A DNA stretch of 32,000 nucleotides, taken from assembly GCF_000010625.1 (NCBI RefSeq), contig NC_010296.1:3930001-3962000 (forward strand), read 5' to 3'. The notes under the pieces were generated by a model. The model was given only the letters and a program-made list of their open reading frames with translations, searched no databases and was not told where the DNA came from. Position 1 is the first letter of the stretch; every line of letters begins with the position of its first letter. This DNA is from Microcystis aeruginosa NIES-843. GTDB lineage: Bacteria > Cyanobacteriota > Cyanobacteriia > Cyanobacteriales > Microcystaceae. Position numbers and translations under genes: made by a program. This document shows positions 3,148 through 25,431 of the stretch, piece by piece.

Positions 3148-4329
3148 ATGGAAAAAGCCTATTCTTACCGATTTTACCCAACACCAGAACAAGAGTCGCT
3201 ATTGCGGCGCACTTTGGGCTGTGTAAGATTAGTTTACAATAAAGCTCTCCACGAACGAACACAAGCATGGTACGAAAAGCAAGAAAGAGTAGGCTACGCT
3301 CAAGCTTCTTCAATGTTGACCGATTGGAAAAAACAAGAAGAATTAGACTTTTTAAACGAAGTAAGCTGTGTACCTTTACAACAAGGGTTAAGACACCTAC
3401 AAACAGCTTTCACTAATTTCTTTGCTGGTCGTACTAAGTATCCTAACTTTAAGAAAAAACATCAAGGAGGAAGTGCCGAATTTACCAAGTCTGCTTTTAA
3501 ATTTAAAGACAGACAAGTCTATTTAGCTAAATGCACAGAACCCTTACCTATTCGATGGTCAAGACAAATACCAGAAAGCTGTGAACCAAGCACAGTAACA
3601 GTCAGATTACATCCCTCAGGACGTTGGCATATTTCAATTAGATTTGATGACCCAACGATTAAGCCATTACCAGTAACAGATAAAGCCATCGGAATTGACT
3701 TAGGAATTAGTAGCCTCGTGATTACCAGCGATGGCGATAAAGTGTCTAATCCCAAGCATTTTAACAAGCATTATCGGAGACTGCGAAAGGCCCAAAAAAG
3801 CCTTTCTAGAAAACAGAAAGGCTCAAAGAATCGAGAAAAGGCAAGAATCAAAGTAGCCAGAATTCACGCTCAAATCACGGATAGTAGAAAAGACCATTTA
3901 CATAAGCTAACCACTCAATTAGTTCGTGAAAACCAAACGATTGTGGTTGAGAATTTAGCCGTCAAGAATATGGTCAAAAACCCGAAATTATCTCAGGCAA
4001 TATCTGATGTAAGCTGGGGAGAAATCACCCGACAATTAGCCTATAAATGCCGTTGGTATGGAAGAAATTACATCGAAATAGATAGATGGTTTCCTAGTTC
4101 TAAACGGTGCAGTAATTGCGGGTATATTGCTGAGAAAATGCCGTTAAATATTCGAGAATGGGACTGTCCAGACTGTGGGACTCACCATGACCGAGATATT
4201 AACGCCAGTAAAAATATTTTGGCCGCAGGGCTTGCGGTGTCAGTCTGTAGAGCGACCATAAGACCAGAACAGAGTAAATCTGTTAAGGCAGGTGCGAAAA
4301 ATCCTTCGGGACCCCAAGCAGAAACCTAA
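3148..4329 (+). CDS. tnpB: TnpB RNA-guided endonuclease (IS200/IS605 OrfB), apparently intact
   Basis: The N-terminus is MEKAYSYRFYPTPEQESLLRRTLGCVRLVYN. The RuvC triad appears as GIDLG, VVENL and HDRDINASKNI. The zinc finger is CSNCG...CPDCG. 393 aa. Confidence 0.92.
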   Translation: MEKAYSYRFYPTPEQESLLRRTLGCVRLVYNKALHERTQAWYEKQERVGYAQASSMLTDWKKQEELDFLNEVSCVPLQQGLRHLQTAFTNFFAGRTKYPNFKKKHQGGSAEFTKSAFKFKDRQVYLAKCTEPLPIRWSRQIPESCEPSTVTVRLHPSGRWHISIRFDDPTIKPLPVTDKAIGIDLGISSLVITSDGDKVSNPKHFNKHYRRLRKAQKSLSRKQKGSKNREKARIKVARIHAQITDSRKDHLHKLTTQLVRENQTIVVENLAVKNMVKNPKLSQAISDVSWGEITRQLAYKCRWYGRNYIEIDRWFPSSKRCSNCGYIAEKMPLNIREWDCPDCGTHHDRDINASKNILAAGLAVSVCRATIRPEQSKSVKAGAKNPSGPQAET

Positions 4330-5086: not shown

Positions 5087-6044
5087 ATCGGCCCACTTCA
5101 GCGAAAATCTGGGCTAAAATCTCTCCAGCACCAGCCTCGCGCACTTTATGGGCTAAATCTCGTCCTAAGACTTCCCCATGGCTAGGATCACCGCTAACCG
5201 AGTCCTTAATCAGGCGCTTACCGTCGAGACTAGCCACCATACCCGTTAAAGTTAGGATACCATCCTCGATCGCCGTATTCACTCCGATGGGAACTTGACA
5301 GCCCCCCTCCAACTCCCGTAAAAAAGCGCGTTCAGCATAGCATCTATCGCGGCTAGGGGCGTGTTCCAACACTTTTAGGACTTCCAAAACCTCCGGATCA
5401 GCATCGCGGCATTCTATCCCTAAAGCCCCCTGTCCCACCGCATGGAGAGAAATCTCCGCCGGAATAACCTGATGAACTCGATCGCCTAATCCTAACCTTT
5501 CCAATCCCGCTACTGCCAGAATAATCGCGTCGTATTCTCCCGCGTCCAGTTTTGCCAGACGGGTGTTGACATTGCCGCGCACATCTTTAAAAGTCAGATG
5601 GGGATAATGGTAACGCAACTGGGCCAATCGCCGCAGGGAAGAAGTCCCCACCACCGCACCTTCCGGTAAAGTGTCTAATTGATAGTCTTGATTTTGGCTA
5701 TTTACCACCAAAGCATCGGCCGGATTAACTCTTTCCGTGACGCAACCCAAGATTAAGCCTTCGGGCAAATTAGTGGGCAGATCCTTGAGAGAATGGACGG
5801 CAAGATCGATCGATCTATCCAACATTCCCACTTCTAGTTCTTTGGTAAATAAACCCTTATCACCGATTTTCGCTAGGGCCACATCGAGAATTTTATCGCC
5901 TTGGGTACTCATCGTCTCCACCTCAAACTGTCGATGGGGGTGGTGTTTACTCAATTCTGCCTGTACCCAATAGGTTTGTACTAGGGCTAACTGACTTTTA
6001 CGCGAACCGATACGCAGGGAACGAGGAGGACTAGAAACGGACAT
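5085..6044 (-). CDS. hemC: Hydroxymethylbilane synthase (porphobilinogen deaminase)
   Basis: [36 protein letters not shown] and the C-terminal dipyrromethane-cofactor cysteine region (GGCQVPIG). 319 aa. Confidence 0.93.
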
Positions 6045-6309
6045 ATCTGAAGTAGGAATTTAACTAAACATCTATCGGACTGCTCGATCTAGACTATCCT
6101 GATCTCACCCCTGTTGAGTAATCACTTTCTAGGTTAGGCATAAATAGTTACATCTCTTAATATTTTTAGGCAAATAGGGTGAGCATTATTCCCCACTGAC
6201 AGCAAAGCTGAAAGCCTAGGTTAAAATAGAGGGACAAACGTTGCAACAGGGTCTAACTAATGACAATGTTTGAACGGACAAATTGGCTAAGTAGCTGGTT
6301 ATAATTAAA

Positions 6310-14211: not shown

Positions 14212-15867
14212 TTGCTGACACCATCGCTACCCAAAAATGATCCTGATCCAGTCAAAAGACAAGATCTATTAAGACGACAAAAACAAGTGTACATTTATGA
14301 TTCCGTTAATGGTATCACCCTCGTCAAAGATTTACCTACCCACGAAAACTTTTCTATTTCCTATCAAGTAATGCGGGGTAAAGGTTTCAGTGCTTTAATT
14401 GCCAATGGAGTCGCCACAAGGGTAGAAAATATCTTCGATCCCTTTGACAAATTAGAAGATTACGAAGAACTTTTTCCCATCCTTCCCCAACCCACAAGCA
14501 TTAAAACTTGGCAATCTAACACAAGTTTTGCCTACCAAAGATTAGCGGGAGCAAATCCCATGGTAATCCGCGGGATTAGCAGCTTACCAAATAATTTTCC
14601 CGTCAGCGATGCTATCTTCCAAAAAGCTATGGGACCCGATAAAACCATTGCCTCGGAAGCCGCTAAGGGTAACTTATTTCTAGCAGATTATGCCCCCCTA
14701 CACCACCTAACTTTAGGCAGTTATCAAAGGGGTATGAAAACTGTGACAGCACCTCTTGTCCTTTTCTGTTGGCGTGCTAGAGGTTTACGGGGTCAAGGGG
14801 GATTAGTACCAGTTGCCATTCAATTGTATCAGGATCCGACCCTACCTAATCAGCGCATCTATACCCCCGATGACGGACTTAATTGGTTAATGGCGAAAAT
14901 TTTCGTGCAAATTGCCGACGGAAATCACCATGAATTAGTTAGTCACCTCAGCCATACCCATTTAGTAGCGGAAGCTTTTGTTTTAGCCACAGCTACCGAG
15001 TTAGCACTTAATCATCCTCTGGCAATTCTATTAAGACCTCATTTTCAATTTACCCTCGCTATTAATAGTTTAGCCGAGAGCGAGTTAATTAACCCCGGCG
15101 GATTCGTTGATCGTCTATTAGCGGGGACCCTAGAAGCATCTATCGAGCTAATTAAGAGTTCCTATCGTCAAAGATTGGATAATTTCGCCGATTATGCCCT
15201 ACCAAAGCAATTAGAATTGCGCCAGGTCCAGGATACCTCCCTACTACCAGATTACCCCTACCGAGACGATGCTCTCTTACTTTGGCAAGCAACGGAAACC
15301 TACGTCAAAGATTACCTAAGTCTTTACTATACTTCCGACGCGGACGTAAACGAGGATACAGAATTACAAGCTTGGGCGCGAAAATTGATGTCATCTGAAG
15401 GTGGAGGCATCAAAAAATTAGTTTCTGACGGAGAATTAGACACTTTAGCCAAATTAGTCGAAGTTGTCACCCAGATAATTTTTGTGGCCGGACCACAACA
15501 CGCGGCGGTTAATTATCCTCAATACGATTATCTCGCCTTTAGCCCCAATATTCCCCTAGCGGGTTATCAATCCCCTCCCAAAGCAGCTGAGGAAGTGGAT
15601 ATAGATTATATTCTCCGTCTTTTGCCGCCCCAGGCCCAGGCCGCTTATCAATTGGAAATTATGCAGACTTTAACAGCTTTTCAATTTAACCGTTTTGGTT
15701 ATCCATCCCGAAGTGCTTTCCCAGATCAACGTGCTTACCCGATTTTGGCGGTTTTCCAAGCTAAATTAAAAGCGATCGAAAATGAGATCGATCGGCGCAA
15801 TTTAACCCGATTTACGCCTTATATTTTCCTGAAACCCTCTCGCATACCCAATAGTATCAATATTTAG
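14212..15867 (+). CDS. Lipoxygenase (bacterial mini-LOX, catalytic domain only, no PLAT domain)
   Basis: The first two iron ligands are the two His of HELVSH (H-x4-H) within HHELVSHLSHTH (~14926-14961). The next two are His and Asn in HAAVNYPQY (~15499-15513). The fifth is the C-terminal Ile carboxylate in IPNSINI*. The TTG start is supported by an AAGGAG Shine-Dalgarno at 14201-14206 with a 5-nt spacer. Confidence 0.9.
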   Translation: MLTPSLPKNDPDPVKRQDLLRRQKQVYIYDSVNGITLVKDLPTHENFSISYQVMRGKGFSALIANGVATRVENIFDPFDKLEDYEELFPILPQPTSIKTWQSNTSFAYQRLAGANPMVIRGISSLPNNFPVSDAIFQKAMGPDKTIASEAAKGNLFLADYAPLHHLTLGSYQRGMKTVTAPLVLFCWRARGLRGQGGLVPVAIQLYQDPTLPNQRIYTPDDGLNWLMAKIFVQIADGNHHELVSHLSHTHLVAEAFVLATATELALNHPLAILLRPHFQFTLAINSLAESELINPGGFVDRLLAGTLEASIELIKSSYRQRLDNFADYALPKQLELRQVQDTSLLPDYPYRDDALLLWQATETYVKDYLSLYYTSDADVNEDTELQAWARKLMSSEGGGIKKLVSDGELDTLAKLVEVVTQIIFVAGPQHAAVNYPQYDYLAFSPNIPLAGYQSPPKAAEEVDIDYILRLLPPQAQAAYQLEIMQTLTAFQFNRFGYPSRSAFPDQRAYPILAVFQAKLKAIENEIDRRNLTRFTPYIFLKPSRIPNSINI

Positions 15868-21293: not shown

Positions 21294-21323
21294 ATTATAG
21301 CAAATTGTTGCTGTTGTTGTCAA
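21294..21323 (-). promoter_or_regulatory. Candidate sigma70-type promoter of the str operon
   Basis: The minus strand reads TTGACA (21323-21318), an 18-nt spacer, then TATAAT (21299-21294). Both hexamers are perfect consensus, about 67 nt upstream of the rpsL ATG. Confidence 0.55.
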
Positions 21324-21602
21324 GTCCGCGATTGTGCTTTTCTCCGGTTTAGATGTTAGAGATTGTCTTTTTCTTGGGCGGCGGCGGCACTCAATTCGGG
21401 CGTTATTAGGCGATAAAATTACAGCTTCGTTGTTTTGGCTTGATAGTGCGATTTTAGCGATAATTATCACCTGATTAATCGGCCAACGTCTGAAAAGCTG
21501 TCTCTAGCTAACCTCATTTTCAGAACTGGTGTCTAGACTATTAGCTCTTAACGATATATTTAGAGCGTTTGTACTGGATGCAACCCAGGTGTGCTGCCAT
21601 AA

Positions 21603-21633
21603 AATATTGTTAACCTTTGAGGTTAACAATATT
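21603..21633. promoter_or_regulatory. Perfect palindrome (13-bp arms, 5-bp centre): candidate operator of the HigB-like/HigA-ImmA operon
   Basis: AATATTGTTAACC TTTGA GGTTAACAATATT read directly, ending 16 nt upstream of the ATG at 21650. Confidence 0.55.
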
Positions 21634-21649
21634 ACAAGGGTCATCTACA

Positions 21650-21985
21650 ATGGATATTGTATTTAAGGAAAAAAAATTTGAGAACGAATGCAATAGCCAA
21701 AGACTACTGAAAAAACAGTATGGAGAGAAGATGGCTAAGAAAATCAGGCAAAGACTCGACGACTTAAAAGCAGTTATTGTCCTGGAGGAAATGCGATCGC
21801 TGCCGGGACGTTGCCACGAATTGTTATATAACCGTGCTGGACAACTATCTTTAGATTTAGTTCATCCCCTCAGACTAATTTTTGAGCCAGCTAATATACC
21901 GATTCCTCAAAAAGCAGACGGGGGAATTGATTGGAAGAAAGTAACCGCAGTCGTAATTATTGGCATAGATGACACCCATGACTAA
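21650..21985 (+). CDS. HigB-like toxin (RelE/ParE superfamily, plasmid-maintenance-killer type)
   Basis: MDIVFKEKKFENECNS...AKKIRQRLDDLKAV..LEEMRSLPGRCHELLYNRAGQLSLDLVHPLRLIFEP...IIGIDDTHD follows the COG3549/HigB pattern: F-x-K..., an RL..L.A helix, PG..HEL..xR.GQ.S, RLIF, and a terminal DxH. ATG at 21650 is preferred over the track's TTG at 21617, which lies inside the palindrome. Confidence 0.7.
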   Translation: MDIVFKEKKFENECNSQRLLKKQYGEKMAKKIRQRLDDLKAVIVLEEMRSLPGRCHELLYNRAGQLSLDLVHPLRLIFEPANIPIPQKADGGIDWKKVTAVVIIGIDDTHD

Positions 21986-23135
21986 TACTATTGAGAACAG
22001 ATATGCACCGGATTTTATTTCTCCACCGGGAGAAACCCTTGCCGAAATCCTAGAAGAAAGAAATATGTCTCAATCGGAACTCGCCCAACGCATGGGCAGA
22101 CCAAAAAAGACTATCAATGAGATCATAAAAGGTAAAGCGGAGATTACTATCGATACCGCCTTACAGATAGAGTTAGTGTTAGGAACTCCCGCCAGTTTCT
22201 GGATAGAGCGCGAAAGACTTTATCGGGAATATTTAGCGAGAAAAAATGAGAATCAAAGATTAAAAGGTTATTTAGGCTGGTTAAAACAAATTCCTTATCG
22301 GCAGATGACTGAATTAGGCTGGCTCAAGTTTGATGAGGATAAAATAGAGCAATTACGAGAGAGCTTGAATTTTTTTGCCGTTGTCTCCCCTGAGCAATGG
22401 GAGGAGATTTGGGGGAGAAATTTATCGATTGATTTTAGAAAGTCTCAAGCATTTGATAGCGATCGAGGGGCAATAACAGCATGGTTACGTCAAGGAGAAA
22501 TAGAAGCATCGAAAATTAATTGTGCTGATTACAACGAGTTGAAATTCAGAGATGCCTTGCGACAAATTCGTTCGTTAACTATTAAGTCTATCGAGGTATT
22601 TCAACCGCAAATGATCGAGCTTTGTGCGGCAGCGGGGGTTGCCTTAGCCTTTGTCCCTGAACTTCCGAAAACAAGGGTACACGGTGCTACCCGTTGGTTA
22701 GATTCTCACAGAGCTTTAATTCAATTGAGCGATCGATACAAAACAAATGATCATTTTTGGTTTTCTTTTTTTCATGAAGCTGGTCATATTTTATTACATG
22801 GGAAACGAACTTTATTTTTAGAGGGGCAAGATATTCAAGATACAATTAAAGAAAAAGAGGCGGATGTTTTTGCGGCTAATTTCTTAATTGATCCCAGAGA
22901 TTGGCAGAGATTTATCGCCAATAATTCTCTGAATAGAAAAGCTATTAATCAATTTGCCGAACAACTAGGAATACACCCTGGTATTATTGTTGGTAGAATG
23001 CAACATGAGCAAATTATTTCTTATCAAAACTGTAATGATCTCAAGGAGAAATATTGTCTAAATACGCAAGATTCCTTTTTGGGATTGACGAGCGACTCCC
23101 CAAAAGGAAAACTTCCTATCTCACCATTAAGATAA
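21969..23135 (+). CDS. Fusion protein: HigA/VapI-type XRE helix-turn-helix antitoxin domain + ImmA/IrrE (COG2856) zinc metallopeptidase domain
   Basis: The N-terminal PPGETLAEILEERNMSQSELAQRMGRPKKTINEIIKGKAEITIDTALQIELVLGTPASFW is a HigA-type HTH. The C-terminal FFHEAGHILLHG holds an HExxH at 22773-22787, with a downstream E (EKEADVFAANFLI), as in ImmA/IrrE. The start overlaps the toxin stop by 17 nt, or by 8 nt if ATG at 21978 is used. Confidence 0.8.
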   Translation: MTPMTNTIENRYAPDFISPPGETLAEILEERNMSQSELAQRMGRPKKTINEIIKGKAEITIDTALQIELVLGTPASFWIERERLYREYLARKNENQRLKGYLGWLKQIPYRQMTELGWLKFDEDKIEQLRESLNFFAVVSPEQWEEIWGRNLSIDFRKSQAFDSDRGAITAWLRQGEIEASKINCADYNELKFRDALRQIRSLTIKSIEVFQPQMIELCAAAGVALAFVPELPKTRVHGATRWLDSHRALIQLSDRYKTNDHFWFSFFHEAGHILLHGKRTLFLEGQDIQDTIKEKEADVFAANFLIDPRDWQRFIANNSLNRKAINQFAEQLGIHPGIIVGRMQHEQIISYQNCNDLKEKYCLNTQDSFLGLTSDSPKGKLPISPLR

Positions 23136-23243: not shown

Positions 23244-24440
23244 ATGCTCGATCTTGCGAGATTAGCGGCAAAAATGCCAGGAATCAGTCAACATTTTCAA
23301 CAGGAAGTGACAGCTAGTCGCGAGCGAGTGCAACGGGCTAAAATTCTTTTGGAACAAGCTCAACAGCAACAGGAAAAACTGCTAGAACTCTATCATAACT
23401 GGCACGATCGCCTAATTTTCTCTGTCGCGCTACCGATCGAACCTCTCGACACCCGCGTTACTATCCTTCCCGCTCCCGAAAGTCATAGCGTTTTTGCCAC
23501 GGATGGTTCCCAGATTGCCCCTTCCCACCACGAAATCGCCTACTGTTATCTAATTAATATCGGTAGGATTATGTTGCACTATGGTCAAAATTTGCACCCG
23601 CTCCTCGATAGCATTCCCGAAGTCTATTACAAATCAGAAGACCTCTACATTTCTAAACAGTGGGGTATTCGCGTCGATGAGTGGATGAGTTATCGTCGGA
23701 CGGTATTAGAAAGCCAAATGTTAGCGGAAATGGCTACTCGTTGGGTAAAACCCCCCGGCGCCCATTATGAACCAAATTTAGCCCTCGTGGATGGTTCTTT
23801 GATCTATTGGTTTATCGATAGTCTCCCCCCAGAAGCAAAAGATTTAATTTTGCCACCGATTTTTCAGTCTTGGGACGATTTGCGATCGGCTAAAATCCCG
23901 CTTATAGGTTATATTAGTGCTTCTCGTAGCACGGAAGGCTTAAATTTCCTGCGTTTACAATCTTGTCCCCATGATACTCCCAATTGCTTGATCAATTGCG
24001 GTGATTTAGACCCAGAAAAAACCCCTTGTCGCGTTGTCGATCCTCTCCGGGATGCTTCTCTCTGGGGTTATTTATTGGAACCAGGGCAAAGAAGTCCTTT
24101 TTGGCGCAGTTCTTTGAAAATACTCGATCTTTATGGGGATGAACATCGCATTTACTTCTGTTATCTCCATGTGGGGACGGAAATCGCTAGGGTAGAGGTT
24201 CCTGCTTGGGTGGTGGAGGAGCGAGAATTACTCGATCGCTCTTTGAGTATTTTACTGGCCCAGGTGTTAAAAGGTTATGGTTATCCGATCGCCTTAGCGG
24301 AAGCGCACAATTTAGCGGTGATTAAAGGTGGCGATCGCTTGCGTTTTTTTGCTCTTTTGGAACAACAGATGATTAAAGTCGGTTTACAGGATGTGGGAAC
24401 ATCTTATAAGGAAGCGAGAAAGCGCAGTAGTATCGCTTAA
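23244..24440 (+). CDS. NurA-like nuclease domain protein
   Basis: FATDGSQIAPSHHEI, LALVDGSLIYWF, GYISASRS and the C-terminal GYGYPIALAEAHNLAVIKG resemble the NurA catalytic Asp/His blocks. 398 aa. The assignment is from motif memory, not a search. Confidence 0.55.
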   Translation: MLDLARLAAKMPGISQHFQQEVTASRERVQRAKILLEQAQQQQEKLLELYHNWHDRLIFSVALPIEPLDTRVTILPAPESHSVFATDGSQIAPSHHEIAYCYLINIGRIMLHYGQNLHPLLDSIPEVYYKSEDLYISKQWGIRVDEWMSYRRTVLESQMLAEMATRWVKPPGAHYEPNLALVDGSLIYWFIDSLPPEAKDLILPPIFQSWDDLRSAKIPLIGYISASRSTEGLNFLRLQSCPHDTPNCLINCGDLDPEKTPCRVVDPLRDASLWGYLLEPGQRSPFWRSSLKILDLYGDEHRIYFCYLHVGTEIARVEVPAWVVEERELLDRSLSILLAQVLKGYGYPIALAEAHNLAVIKGGDRLRFFALLEQQMIKVGLQDVGTSYKEARKRSSIA

Positions 24441-24825: not shown

Positions 24826-25431
24826 CTAGCGACTGCTACGATCTTGGTCCAAGACGCTGACAGGGAAATTATTATAACCAACGTGATGCTTGCTGGTTTT
24901 TTGAATTTCTTCTTTAATTTGATCTAGATCAACATAGCGATCGGCTACATTAATTAAACTATCACTGGTCATCGATCGCAAACTAACCACTTCCACTCGC
25001 GCACCACGGTAACTGACGGAATCGGCAGCATAGGCCAAATCCCCATCACCACTGACAATTACTGCGGTATCATAGGAACCCACTAGCGCCATTAAATCCA
25101 CGGCAATTTCCACGTCAAGATTGGCTTTTTTGGAACCATCGGGCAATTGTACTAGATCTTTAGCGATGACTCGATAACCGTTGCGACGCATCCAGAGGAG
25201 GAATCCCTGCTGTTTTTCGTTAGTGCGATCAACTCCAGTATAAAAGAAGGCGCGCAAGAGACGAGAACCGGCAGTTAAACGACAAAGTAATTTGGTGTAG
25301 TCAATTTCGATACCTAATTGCAGAGCCGCATAAAATAAATTGGAACCATCGATGAAAATCGCCACACGACCGCGATTTTCTAGCACTTGTTCGGGGGTGA
25401 AGACTGGGGCCGTGTCATAATCATCAAACAT
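24826..25431 (-). CDS. NYN-domain (LabA/DUF88-like) protein
   Basis: VAIFIDGSNLFYAA...IDYTKLL...RAFFYTG...DVEIAVDL...AVIVSGDGDLAYA is the NYN/LabA acidic-residue pattern. 201 aa. Confidence 0.8.
   Translation of the reverse strand: MFDDYDTAPVFTPEQVLENRGRVAIFIDGSNLFYAALQLGIEIDYTKLLCRLTAGSRLLRAFFYTGVDRTNEKQQGFLLWMRRNGYRVIAKDLVQLPDGSKKANLDVEIAVDLMALVGSYDTAVIVSGDGDLAYAADSVSYRGARVEVVSLRSMTSDSLINVADRYVDLDQIKEEIQKTSKHHVGYNNFPVSVLDQDRSSR

Follow-up and report, generated by a model that had tools for sequence, protein, structure and literature searches.

Proteins in which an Xre-type DNA-binding domain is joined to a COG2856 peptidase domain were catalogued by Makarova, Wolf and Koonin (2009; PMC2701414), who found the two domains fused in over half the cases, noted that many of the fusions lie in operons with RelE or PIN toxins, drew an analogy with the LexA autoprotease, and predicted a more complex toxin-antitoxin (TA) circuit. 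The self-gating idea was repeated for the ImmA/Rosmer antitoxins, node D25 of NetFlax, by Ernits (2023; PMC10440598). A three-gene relative, PD-λ-2 of Escherichia coli ECOR42, is made of a HigB-like gene (A), a gene for a HigA-like helix-turn-helix (HTH) protein with a C-terminal peptidase (B), and a third gene related to the P4 antitoxin (C); it provides abortive-infection defense against λvir (Vassallo, 2022; PMC9519451). Here we describe a two-gene locus of this kind in the cyanobacterium Microcystis aeruginosa NIES-843. The locus lies in a stretch of 32,000 nucleotides (contig NC_010296.1, positions 3,930,001 to 3,962,000), which we call the window and in which all coordinates below are given unless another contig is named. 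It is very likely a TA cassette of the known "RelE/HigB + fused Xre-COG2856" class, and the best explanation of all observations, with a probability of roughly 0.55, is a cassette of a HigB toxin and a self-gated HigA-M78 antitoxin. An earlier interpretation made from the DNA letters without database searches (the sequence-only reading) had proposed a self-inactivating, signal-gated antitoxin; the idea is not new, being explicit in the 2009 study and appearing again in that of 2023.

The first gene of the pair (21650..21985, plus strand) encodes a HigB-like protein of 111 aa from the RelE superfamily; this assignment uses PHROG, a family profile, hhalign, and AlphaFold with Foldseek. The second gene, on the same strand, encodes a fusion protein in which a helical linker joins a HigA-type HTH to an M78 metallopeptidase. 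It could start at ATG 21978 (21978..23135, 385 aa, overlapping the small open reading frame, ORF, by 8 nt) or at ATG 21969 (388 aa, overlapping by 17 nt). The overlap of a 111-aa ORF with a larger one had been seen correctly from the letters, but the 388-aa start had not: the alignment of homologs and most Microcystis gene calls favor the second ATG, 21978, and hence the 385-aa form. Residue numbers of the fusion protein follow the 388-aa form throughout. The toxin-first order is that of HigB/HigA type II modules, and the small ORF was found directly upstream of the fusion gene in 78 of 80 related loci.

At the N-terminus of the large protein, the Pfam domain HTH_3 was detected at residues 24-77 (1.2e-11), and the NCBIfam model TIGR02607 (HigA) scored 53.1 bits against a cut-off of 47.7. 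The HigA-type Xre HTH as a whole covers residues ~17-99 (22017..22265, plus strand). This region had sequence matches in PDB to proteins of the HigA/VapI type (3cec, 3trb and 4mcx), while a Foldseek comparison of the N-terminal part with the HigA structures 3trb, 3cec, 4mct_A and 7csy produced TM values of 0.7-0.85. Further downstream, Peptidase_M78 (PF06114) was found at residues 242-309 (2.2e-8, 34.4 bits, cut-off 22), and from PF06114 and Foldseek the ImmA/IrrE domain (Peptidase_M78, COG2856) was delimited to residues ~166-350 (22464..23018, plus strand). Among the Foldseek matches of the C-terminal part were CapP (7t5t, E 4.9e-4), PprI (8sln) and IrrE (3dti); these covered 165-177 columns at a probability of 1.0. 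The HEAGH motif occupies residues 269-273 (22773-22787); Glu295 (22851-22853) would be the third zinc ligand, as we infer from IrrE residues 82/83/86/113. Since H269, E270, H273 and E295 are invariant in all 81 homologs compared, the peptidase is very probably active. The proposal that a HigA-type HTH and an HEAGH zinc-peptidase share one ORF was thus borne out, with TIGR02607, HTH_3 and PF06114 all above their cut-offs. RefSeq names the large protein either as a HigA antitoxin or as an ImmA/IrrE peptidase.

The structure model of the large protein had a pLDDT of 82.8. In this model residues ~100-165 form four short helices and a low-confidence loop, followed by the alpha/beta peptidase domain at ~166-350. 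Because the peptidase domain is that long, the middle part amounts to ~65 residues and not to the ~150 of the sequence-only reading. No GAF-like sensor domain was detected in the fusion protein.

The small ORF was more difficult to assign. Searches with this sequence produced no match at threshold in Pfam (including PF05015) or NCBIfam, no match to the PD-Lambda-2_A model in PADLOC, and nothing in a direct phmmer search against PDB. Therefore, the HigB assignment was made by way of a family profile and a structure model. The small ORF did match PHROG 3066, "toxin of TA system" (1.3e-8); its homologs are named killer protein or RelE/ParE toxin in the source databases, and some relatives at 65-70% identity carry precomputed PF05015 annotations. 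Compared with PDB, the family profile found GraT (6f8s_B, 1.7e-3) and the Proteus vulgaris HigB, with an hhalign E-value of 5e-5 between the small ORF and the latter. The AlphaFold model (pLDDT 93.3) had as its top PDB matches the P. vulgaris HigB structures 5ixl, 4w4g and 4ypb, all with probability 1.0 and TM 0.69-0.74. These model-based comparisons support a RelE/HigB microbial-RNase fold. A HigB toxin with a PF05015-like domain had been suggested before; the fold and profile matches agree with the suggestion, while the PF05015 threshold was not reached.

Four residues that matter for the activity of P. vulgaris HigB, His54, Arg73, Asp90 and His92 (PMC5027501), align with His56, Arg75, Asp108 and His110 of the small ORF. 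Across 76 homologs from many phyla we found H56 conserved in 97%, R75 in 98%, D108 in 82% (with Asn in 16% more) and H110 in 100%. On the other hand, the largest drop in cleavage rate of the P. vulgaris enzyme was caused by the change of Tyr91 to Ala (PMC5027501), and the equivalent of Tyr91 here is Thr109, with Thr in 82% and Tyr in 13% of the homologs. From the alignment, this replacement is the main blemish on the HigB assignment. By its similarity to HigB the small protein would be a ribosome-dependent mRNA endonuclease.

Among the described systems, PD-λ-2 resembles the locus most in its gene order and in its B component. The PADLOC model PD-Lambda-2_B matched the large ORF nearly over its full length (4.1e-36, protein residues 20-358, model positions 60-386 of 402). 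PADLOC models for capP and RmrA matched the peptidase region (1e-9 to 1e-11), and the thirteen RmrA matches (the best at 2.8e-11) were partial and far weaker than that of PD-Lambda-2_B. The A components differ: the prototype A belongs to PF09907 (HigB_toxin), whereas the small protein of the window is nearer to PF05015 and the P. vulgaris HigB, within the same fold. The locus also differs with respect to the third gene. No PD-λ-2C (Beta_protein, PF14350) gene was found in the window, either by PADLOC or by tblastn with a C homolog, and the gene just downstream of the fusion encodes a NurA protein with no PADLOC match. Among the 80 related loci the third gene was present in 5 and absent from 75. 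The five are from Acidobacteria (L025, L037, L046, L054 and L077 in our numbering of loci), where a gene at ~5100-6200 overlaps the stop of the fusion gene and matches Pfam Beta_protein at 4.5e-77 and PADLOC PD-Lambda-2_C at 4.3e-60. Judging from these matches, the five have all three genes of a PD-λ-2 system, with an A component that is PF05015-like. The family of the window, therefore, grades into full PD-λ-2 systems, and by sequence the locus corresponds to the A+B core of systems of the PD-λ-2 type, in a C-less, PF05015-like branch related to RosmerTA. A relic of the third gene was also noticed in locus L041 (5114-5203).

Comparison with the 2009 class is simple: a RelE-superfamily toxin next to a single Xre-COG2856 protein is exactly the arrangement in the window, although that work was purely computational and proposed no operator, HigB subfamily or cleavage site. 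Toxins with an XRE-ImmA antitoxin are also known from RosmerTA (Millman, 2022), NetFlax D25 (PMC10440598) and RipAB of Streptococcus pneumoniae (bioRxiv 2025.09.02.673660), and some of these systems have been validated in phage defense. The antitoxins of these systems resemble the fusion protein in having an XRE HTH at the N-terminus and an ImmA-like Zn-peptidase at the C-terminus; they lie beside a swappable toxin, as here, and have roles in phage defense or stress. However, Rosmer toxins are unrelated to HigB (among them are toxins that depolarize membranes, and RipA, which acts on DnaN), the resemblance to RmrA does not extend beyond the peptidase region, and RmrA has no defined HigA-type HTH. 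A survey of RelE/ParE defense toxins (mBio 2025) makes no mention of ImmA, IrrE or peptidase partners.

Canonical HigBA modules (P. vulgaris Rts1, Pseudomonas aeruginosa PA4674/4675 and P. putida GraTA) have in common with the locus the toxin-first order, the HigB fold with equivalents of the His/Arg/Asp/His residues, the HigA HTH fold, and TTAAC/GTTAA palindromes, through which the canonical modules are autoregulated and the locus would be. Unlike the fusion protein, canonical HigA has ~100 aa and no protease domain, and the HigB Tyr91 is a Thr here. The pairs ImmA/ImmR (ICEBs1), IrrE(PprI)/DdrO (Deinococcus) and CapP/CapH (CBASS) likewise combine an HExxH...E M78 peptidase with an XRE repressor. 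In those cases two separate proteins govern a downstream operon; in the window both domains reside in one polypeptide, and the operon to be controlled consists of the genes for a toxin and for this same fusion protein.

The assignment of roles to the two partners draws on natural mutants. We compared this chromosomal site in ten complete genomes of Microcystis and found both genes intact in five. In three genomes (L086, L088 and L089) an IS605-family (TnpB/OrfB) element of ~1.3 kb has taken the place of the final codons of the small ORF, so that D108 and H110 are missing; the right end of the element adjoins ATG 21978 directly (window 21977|21978), and the large ORF is intact. In a fourth genome, L090, the small ORF carries the nonsense mutation Q34*, while the large ORF is intact and retains the native promoter ahead of it. 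An interrupted large ORF was found in one strain only, L082 (CP020664.1). There, a 117-nt MITE-like insertion (L082 3837-3953) with a 3-nt duplication, at a position equivalent to window 22272-22274, halts the large ORF after approximately residue 101, past the HTH domain. The small ORF of the same strain carries H110L and P52L, and the nucleotide change behind H110L also turns ATG 21978 into TTG. That is, decay starts with the small gene, and the large gene is broken only where the small protein has already lost its catalytic His, as fits a toxin/antitoxin pair.

Outside Microcystis, we observed the same direction of decay. The small gene was lost, truncated or frameshifted and the fusion gene kept in L011, L014 and L044, all from other cyanobacteria. 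As for intact toxins in general, all 23 contigs that encode the toxin sequence P0001 had an intact partner of 385-390 aa. Altogether the small ORF was inactivated at least six independent times with the fusion intact, and an intact small gene without an intact partner was never found. In the uncultured cyanobacterium L011, the place of the small ORF (~3600-4000) is taken by unrelated sequence, in which an HNH-like motif was apparent by eye. Although the evidence is indirect, the asymmetry of decay makes it likely that the small ORF is the toxin and the large ORF the antitoxin, and the pattern of mutants would be hard to reconcile with a fusion protein lethal on its own at native levels.

These were the roles given in the sequence-only reading; the natural mutants speak for them, and an experimental result on PD-λ-2 speaks against them. 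When overexpressed alone, PD-λ-2B was toxic, and the HigB-like PD-λ-2A rescued the cells, which was unexpected there (PMC9519451). This result is the starting point of an opposite interpretation, in which the HigA-peptidase is the toxic effector directed against host or phage targets, and the HigB-like protein keeps it under control as an inhibitor or sensor whose catalytic residues are irrelevant. Such a reversal would also accommodate the match of the large ORF to PD-Lambda-2_B over its full length (4e-36), the invariant active site of the peptidase, and the five Acidobacteria loci in which the same A and B families are joined by a genuine PD-Lambda-2_C gene. It is opposed by the six or more independent inactivations of the small gene with the fusion intact, with L090 (Q34*) keeping the large gene behind its native promoter, and by the failure to find an intact small gene without an intact partner. 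Moreover, the residues equivalent to the catalytic His and Arg of HigB show 97-100% conservation across phyla, as would not be expected of a mere inhibitor, and the PD-λ-2 prototype has its A component from a different HigB family, PF09907. Nothing like the toxicity reported for B alone is apparent from the natural mutants of the family in the window. Overall, we regard the reversal of roles as unlikely, and we continue with the small protein as the putative toxin.

The gene pair is preceded by a perfect 31-bp palindrome (21603..21633), which in full reads AATATTGTTAACCT-TTG-AGGTTAACAATATT, i.e., 14 nt + 3 nt + 14 nt, with the core TTAAC-N7-GTTAA at 21610-21626. It had been written earlier as AATATTGTTAACC-N5-GGTTAACAATATT; the position and the perfection were correct, while the N5 form has to be replaced by 14+3+14. 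The palindrome indeed ends 16 nt 5' of the toxin ATG (21650), as had been stated. Its core GTTAACC-N5-GGTTAAC has one exact occurrence in the 32 kb, where 0.14 sites with up to 2 mismatches would be expected by chance. A similar site with 2 mismatches, TTTAACCGTTTTGGTTATC, was considered at 15685-15703; it is located inside a 551-aa ORF and is probably a chance occurrence.

When at most one mismatch was allowed, 75 of 78 related loci had TTAAC-N7-GTTAA upstream of the small ORF, and the spacer was exactly 7 in 72 of these 75. The end of the core was usually positioned 19-27 nt ahead of the small ORF start, and the position-specific consensus across loci was tTaTTAACC-N5-GGTTAATAATATT. TTAAC and GTTAA are the half-sites of the experimentally defined HigA operator of P. 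aeruginosa (PMC6987408), though in that operator the half-sites abut (TTAAC GTTAA), while 7 nt separate them in the window. Among the fusion proteins, the recognition-helix region GRPKKTINEI is nearly invariant. The cross-locus comparison supports the palindrome as a conserved operator of the gene pair, built from HigA half-sites and overlapping the likely promoter.

A candidate -10 box, TAAAAT (21600..21605, plus strand), is situated 4 nt upstream of the extended operator. The box is strongly conserved at a fixed offset to the operator in 26 cyanobacterial loci, and a TAnnnT hexamer 2-9 nt upstream of the operator was present in 34 of 71 loci overall. With the box at that distance, a bound dimer would cover the transcription start, if the start is placed from the TAAAAT box. 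A consensus scan revealed a second promoter-like site, TTAACA-17-TACAAT (21623..21651, plus strand, 10/12 matches), which overlaps the ATG of the small ORF. A TTGACA-like hexamer starts 0-13 nt past the operator in 29 of 71 related loci, many of them non-cyanobacterial. Transcription from a promoter at this site would begin within the toxin ORF and possibly yield an antitoxin-only transcript. Where the TTGACA-like hexamer was read directly (among L020-L079), it was only 12-14 nt before the start codon.

We propose the following mechanism for the cassette. A dimer of the fusion protein would repress the operon at TTAAC-N7-GTTAA, and the HigA domain of the fusion protein would serve to neutralize HigB. 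On the model of ImmA/ImmR, IrrE/DdrO and CapP/CapH, the M78 domain would be a latent, signal-activated protease that responds to stress or infection, the cue being for instance single-stranded DNA (ssDNA) or a product of the phage. Once activated, it would cut its own fusion chain, in cis or between protomers, most likely in the loop at (F/Y)156/R157, and thereby part the HTH from the rest of the protein. A single cut could both derepress the operon and free the active HigB RNase, leading to growth arrest or abortive infection.

The candidate cleavage site is a conserved F156-R157-K158-S159 motif (22434..22445, plus strand) in a predicted flexible loop. We found F or Y at position 156 in 81 of 81 homologs, R157 in 76 and S159 in 80. 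Residues 150-165 have a pLDDT of ~53 and no secondary structure, and between the HTH/linker and the peptidase domain they form the only loop of low confidence. Known M78 peptidases cut a hydrophobic/Arg bond just beyond the HTH (F82/R83 in CapH and L106/R107 in DdrO); CapP and PprI are stimulated by ssDNA, and M78/XRE cleavage is triggered by DNA damage or ssDNA. From these parallels we would suggest, tentatively, that the (F/Y)156/R157 loop is the cleavage site of the fusion protein and self-cleavage there the actual switch. A LexA-like antitoxin gated by its own proteolysis at this bond is to be taken as a conjecture of the same low standing. The sequence-only reading had remarked that such switch logic was without experimental demonstration for a HigBA module, and this still appears to be true in the literature; we know of no HigBA, PD-λ-2 or Rosmer system in which an autoproteolytic switch has been demonstrated.

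The locus could instead be a conventional HigBA addiction or stress module whose M78 domain does not cut its own polypeptide: sensing of a ligand or phage protein might free HigB without a cut, or the peptidase might act in trans on another XRE repressor, on HigB or on a phage protein. Some COG2856/XRE pairs were proposed (PMC6868357) to work by blocking oligomerization without cleavage. The RosmerTA and RipAB antitoxins, with the same pair of domains, are without an established mechanism, and the interrupted gene of L082 would yield an HTH-only product, though in that strain the toxin is mutated too. Conversely, the invariance of the zinc-binding and catalytic residues in 81 of 81 homologs favors real catalysis, the conserved hydrophobic-Arg motif in a flexible linker resembles known M78 substrate sites, and no second XRE gene is conserved nearby as a target in trans. 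We consider a peptidase that spares its own chain improbable, and retain the self-gated HigA-M78 antitoxin as the preferred explanation.

Several observations weigh against this explanation. For the small ORF they are the empty searches in Pfam, NCBIfam and PADLOC and the replacement of the Tyr91 equivalent described above. For the assignment of roles, besides the toxicity of PD-λ-2B, they include the position of the IS element: of the four Microcystis genomes in which the small ORF is damaged and its partner is not, three have this element between the large gene and the promoter, so that the fusion alone might be tolerated because little of it is made. At the operator, the two promoter-like arrangements, one of them overlapping the ATG, compete as candidates for the transcription start. 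As to function, PD-λ-2 defense required the third gene (PMC9519451), which the window does not have, and some COG2856/XRE pairs may act with no cleavage at all (PMC6868357).

Full-length fusion proteins of 355-390 aa were found in more than 100 clusters at 57-98% identity. At E<=1e-30 the fusion protein was represented in ~1,650 clusters (50% identity), with matches in at least 537 species or genomes, so that the three-domain arrangement, whose frequency had been in question, is widespread. The taxa include Cyanobacteria, Deltaproteobacteria, Nitrospirota, Chloroflexi, Acidobacteria, Gemmatimonadota, Armatimonadota, Legionella and Peptococcaceae. We also found the fusion gene on 35 plasmids and 17 full-length copies in proviral or viral contigs of IMG/VR. 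In Microcystis itself the single-ORF fusion was present in dozens of independent assemblies.

Such a distribution answers the concern, raised along with the original proposal, that the 388-aa ORF might be an assembly or frameshift artefact joining a HigA gene to a separate ImmA/IrrE gene. Nothing was found in favor of an artefact, apart from the fact that separate Xre and COG2856 genes do occur in other systems. The ORF is conserved as a single ORF at full length across phyla, in more than 100 clusters of 355-390 aa, in 1,650 clusters overall, in at least 537 genomes and in many Microcystis assemblies. Therefore, it is not a frameshift-fused product, and we regard the possibility of an artefact as negligible.

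In the 80 related loci no conserved neighbor was found besides the small ORF, and no second XRE gene was among the neighbors. Because no other neighbor is conserved, the locus is, by this genomic comparison, a self-contained, horizontally mobile two-gene cassette. Two IMG/VR contigs, L108 (3001-3248) and L109 (3000-3164), carried a 5' fragment of the fusion gene only, at 96-98% DNA identity. The L108 fragment corresponds to window 21978-22225, starting exactly from ATG 21978, and that of L109 to 22061-22225; both stop at 22225, and they are probably relics of rearrangement.

The Microcystis cassette is located between the divergently transcribed rpsL-rpsG-fusA operon and a gene for a NurA-domain protein, and the Microcystis homologs are 96-98% identical to the proteins of the window. 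On the minus strand at 21294-21323 we noticed a perfect sigma-70-type promoter, TTGACA-18-TATAAT with TG, which faces rpsL-rpsG-fusA and is divergent from the cassette. The NurA-domain protein (23244-24440, plus strand; Pfam 5e-43) had no adjoining HerA-like ATPase that we noticed, and a NYN-domain protein is encoded at 24826-25431 on the minus strand. The NurA and NYN genes were considered as a third component and rejected: they are neighbors of the cassette in Microcystis only and have no PADLOC match. An Rfam scan of the whole window found no RNA family.

The architecture is already catalogued, as it was predicted in 2009, is named in RefSeq, and has a three-gene relative that defends E. 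coli against phage. Therefore, the window adds a member and not a new kind of system. What the locus does provide is handles on the role of the peptidase and on the identity of the toxic partner in the class of PD-λ-2, Rosmer and RipAB. The first of them is an operator that is precisely defined and conserved across phyla. The second is a candidate cleavage loop resembling the sites in CapH and DdrO; an autoproteolytic switch, if true, would explain why the two-gene form without PD-λ-2C is the commoner one. The third is the pattern of natural mutants in cyanobacteria, which favors the classical roles and sits uneasily with what overexpression of PD-λ-2B showed. Since the module is present in a bloom-forming cyanobacterium under heavy phage pressure, it could be relevant to defense against cyanophages.

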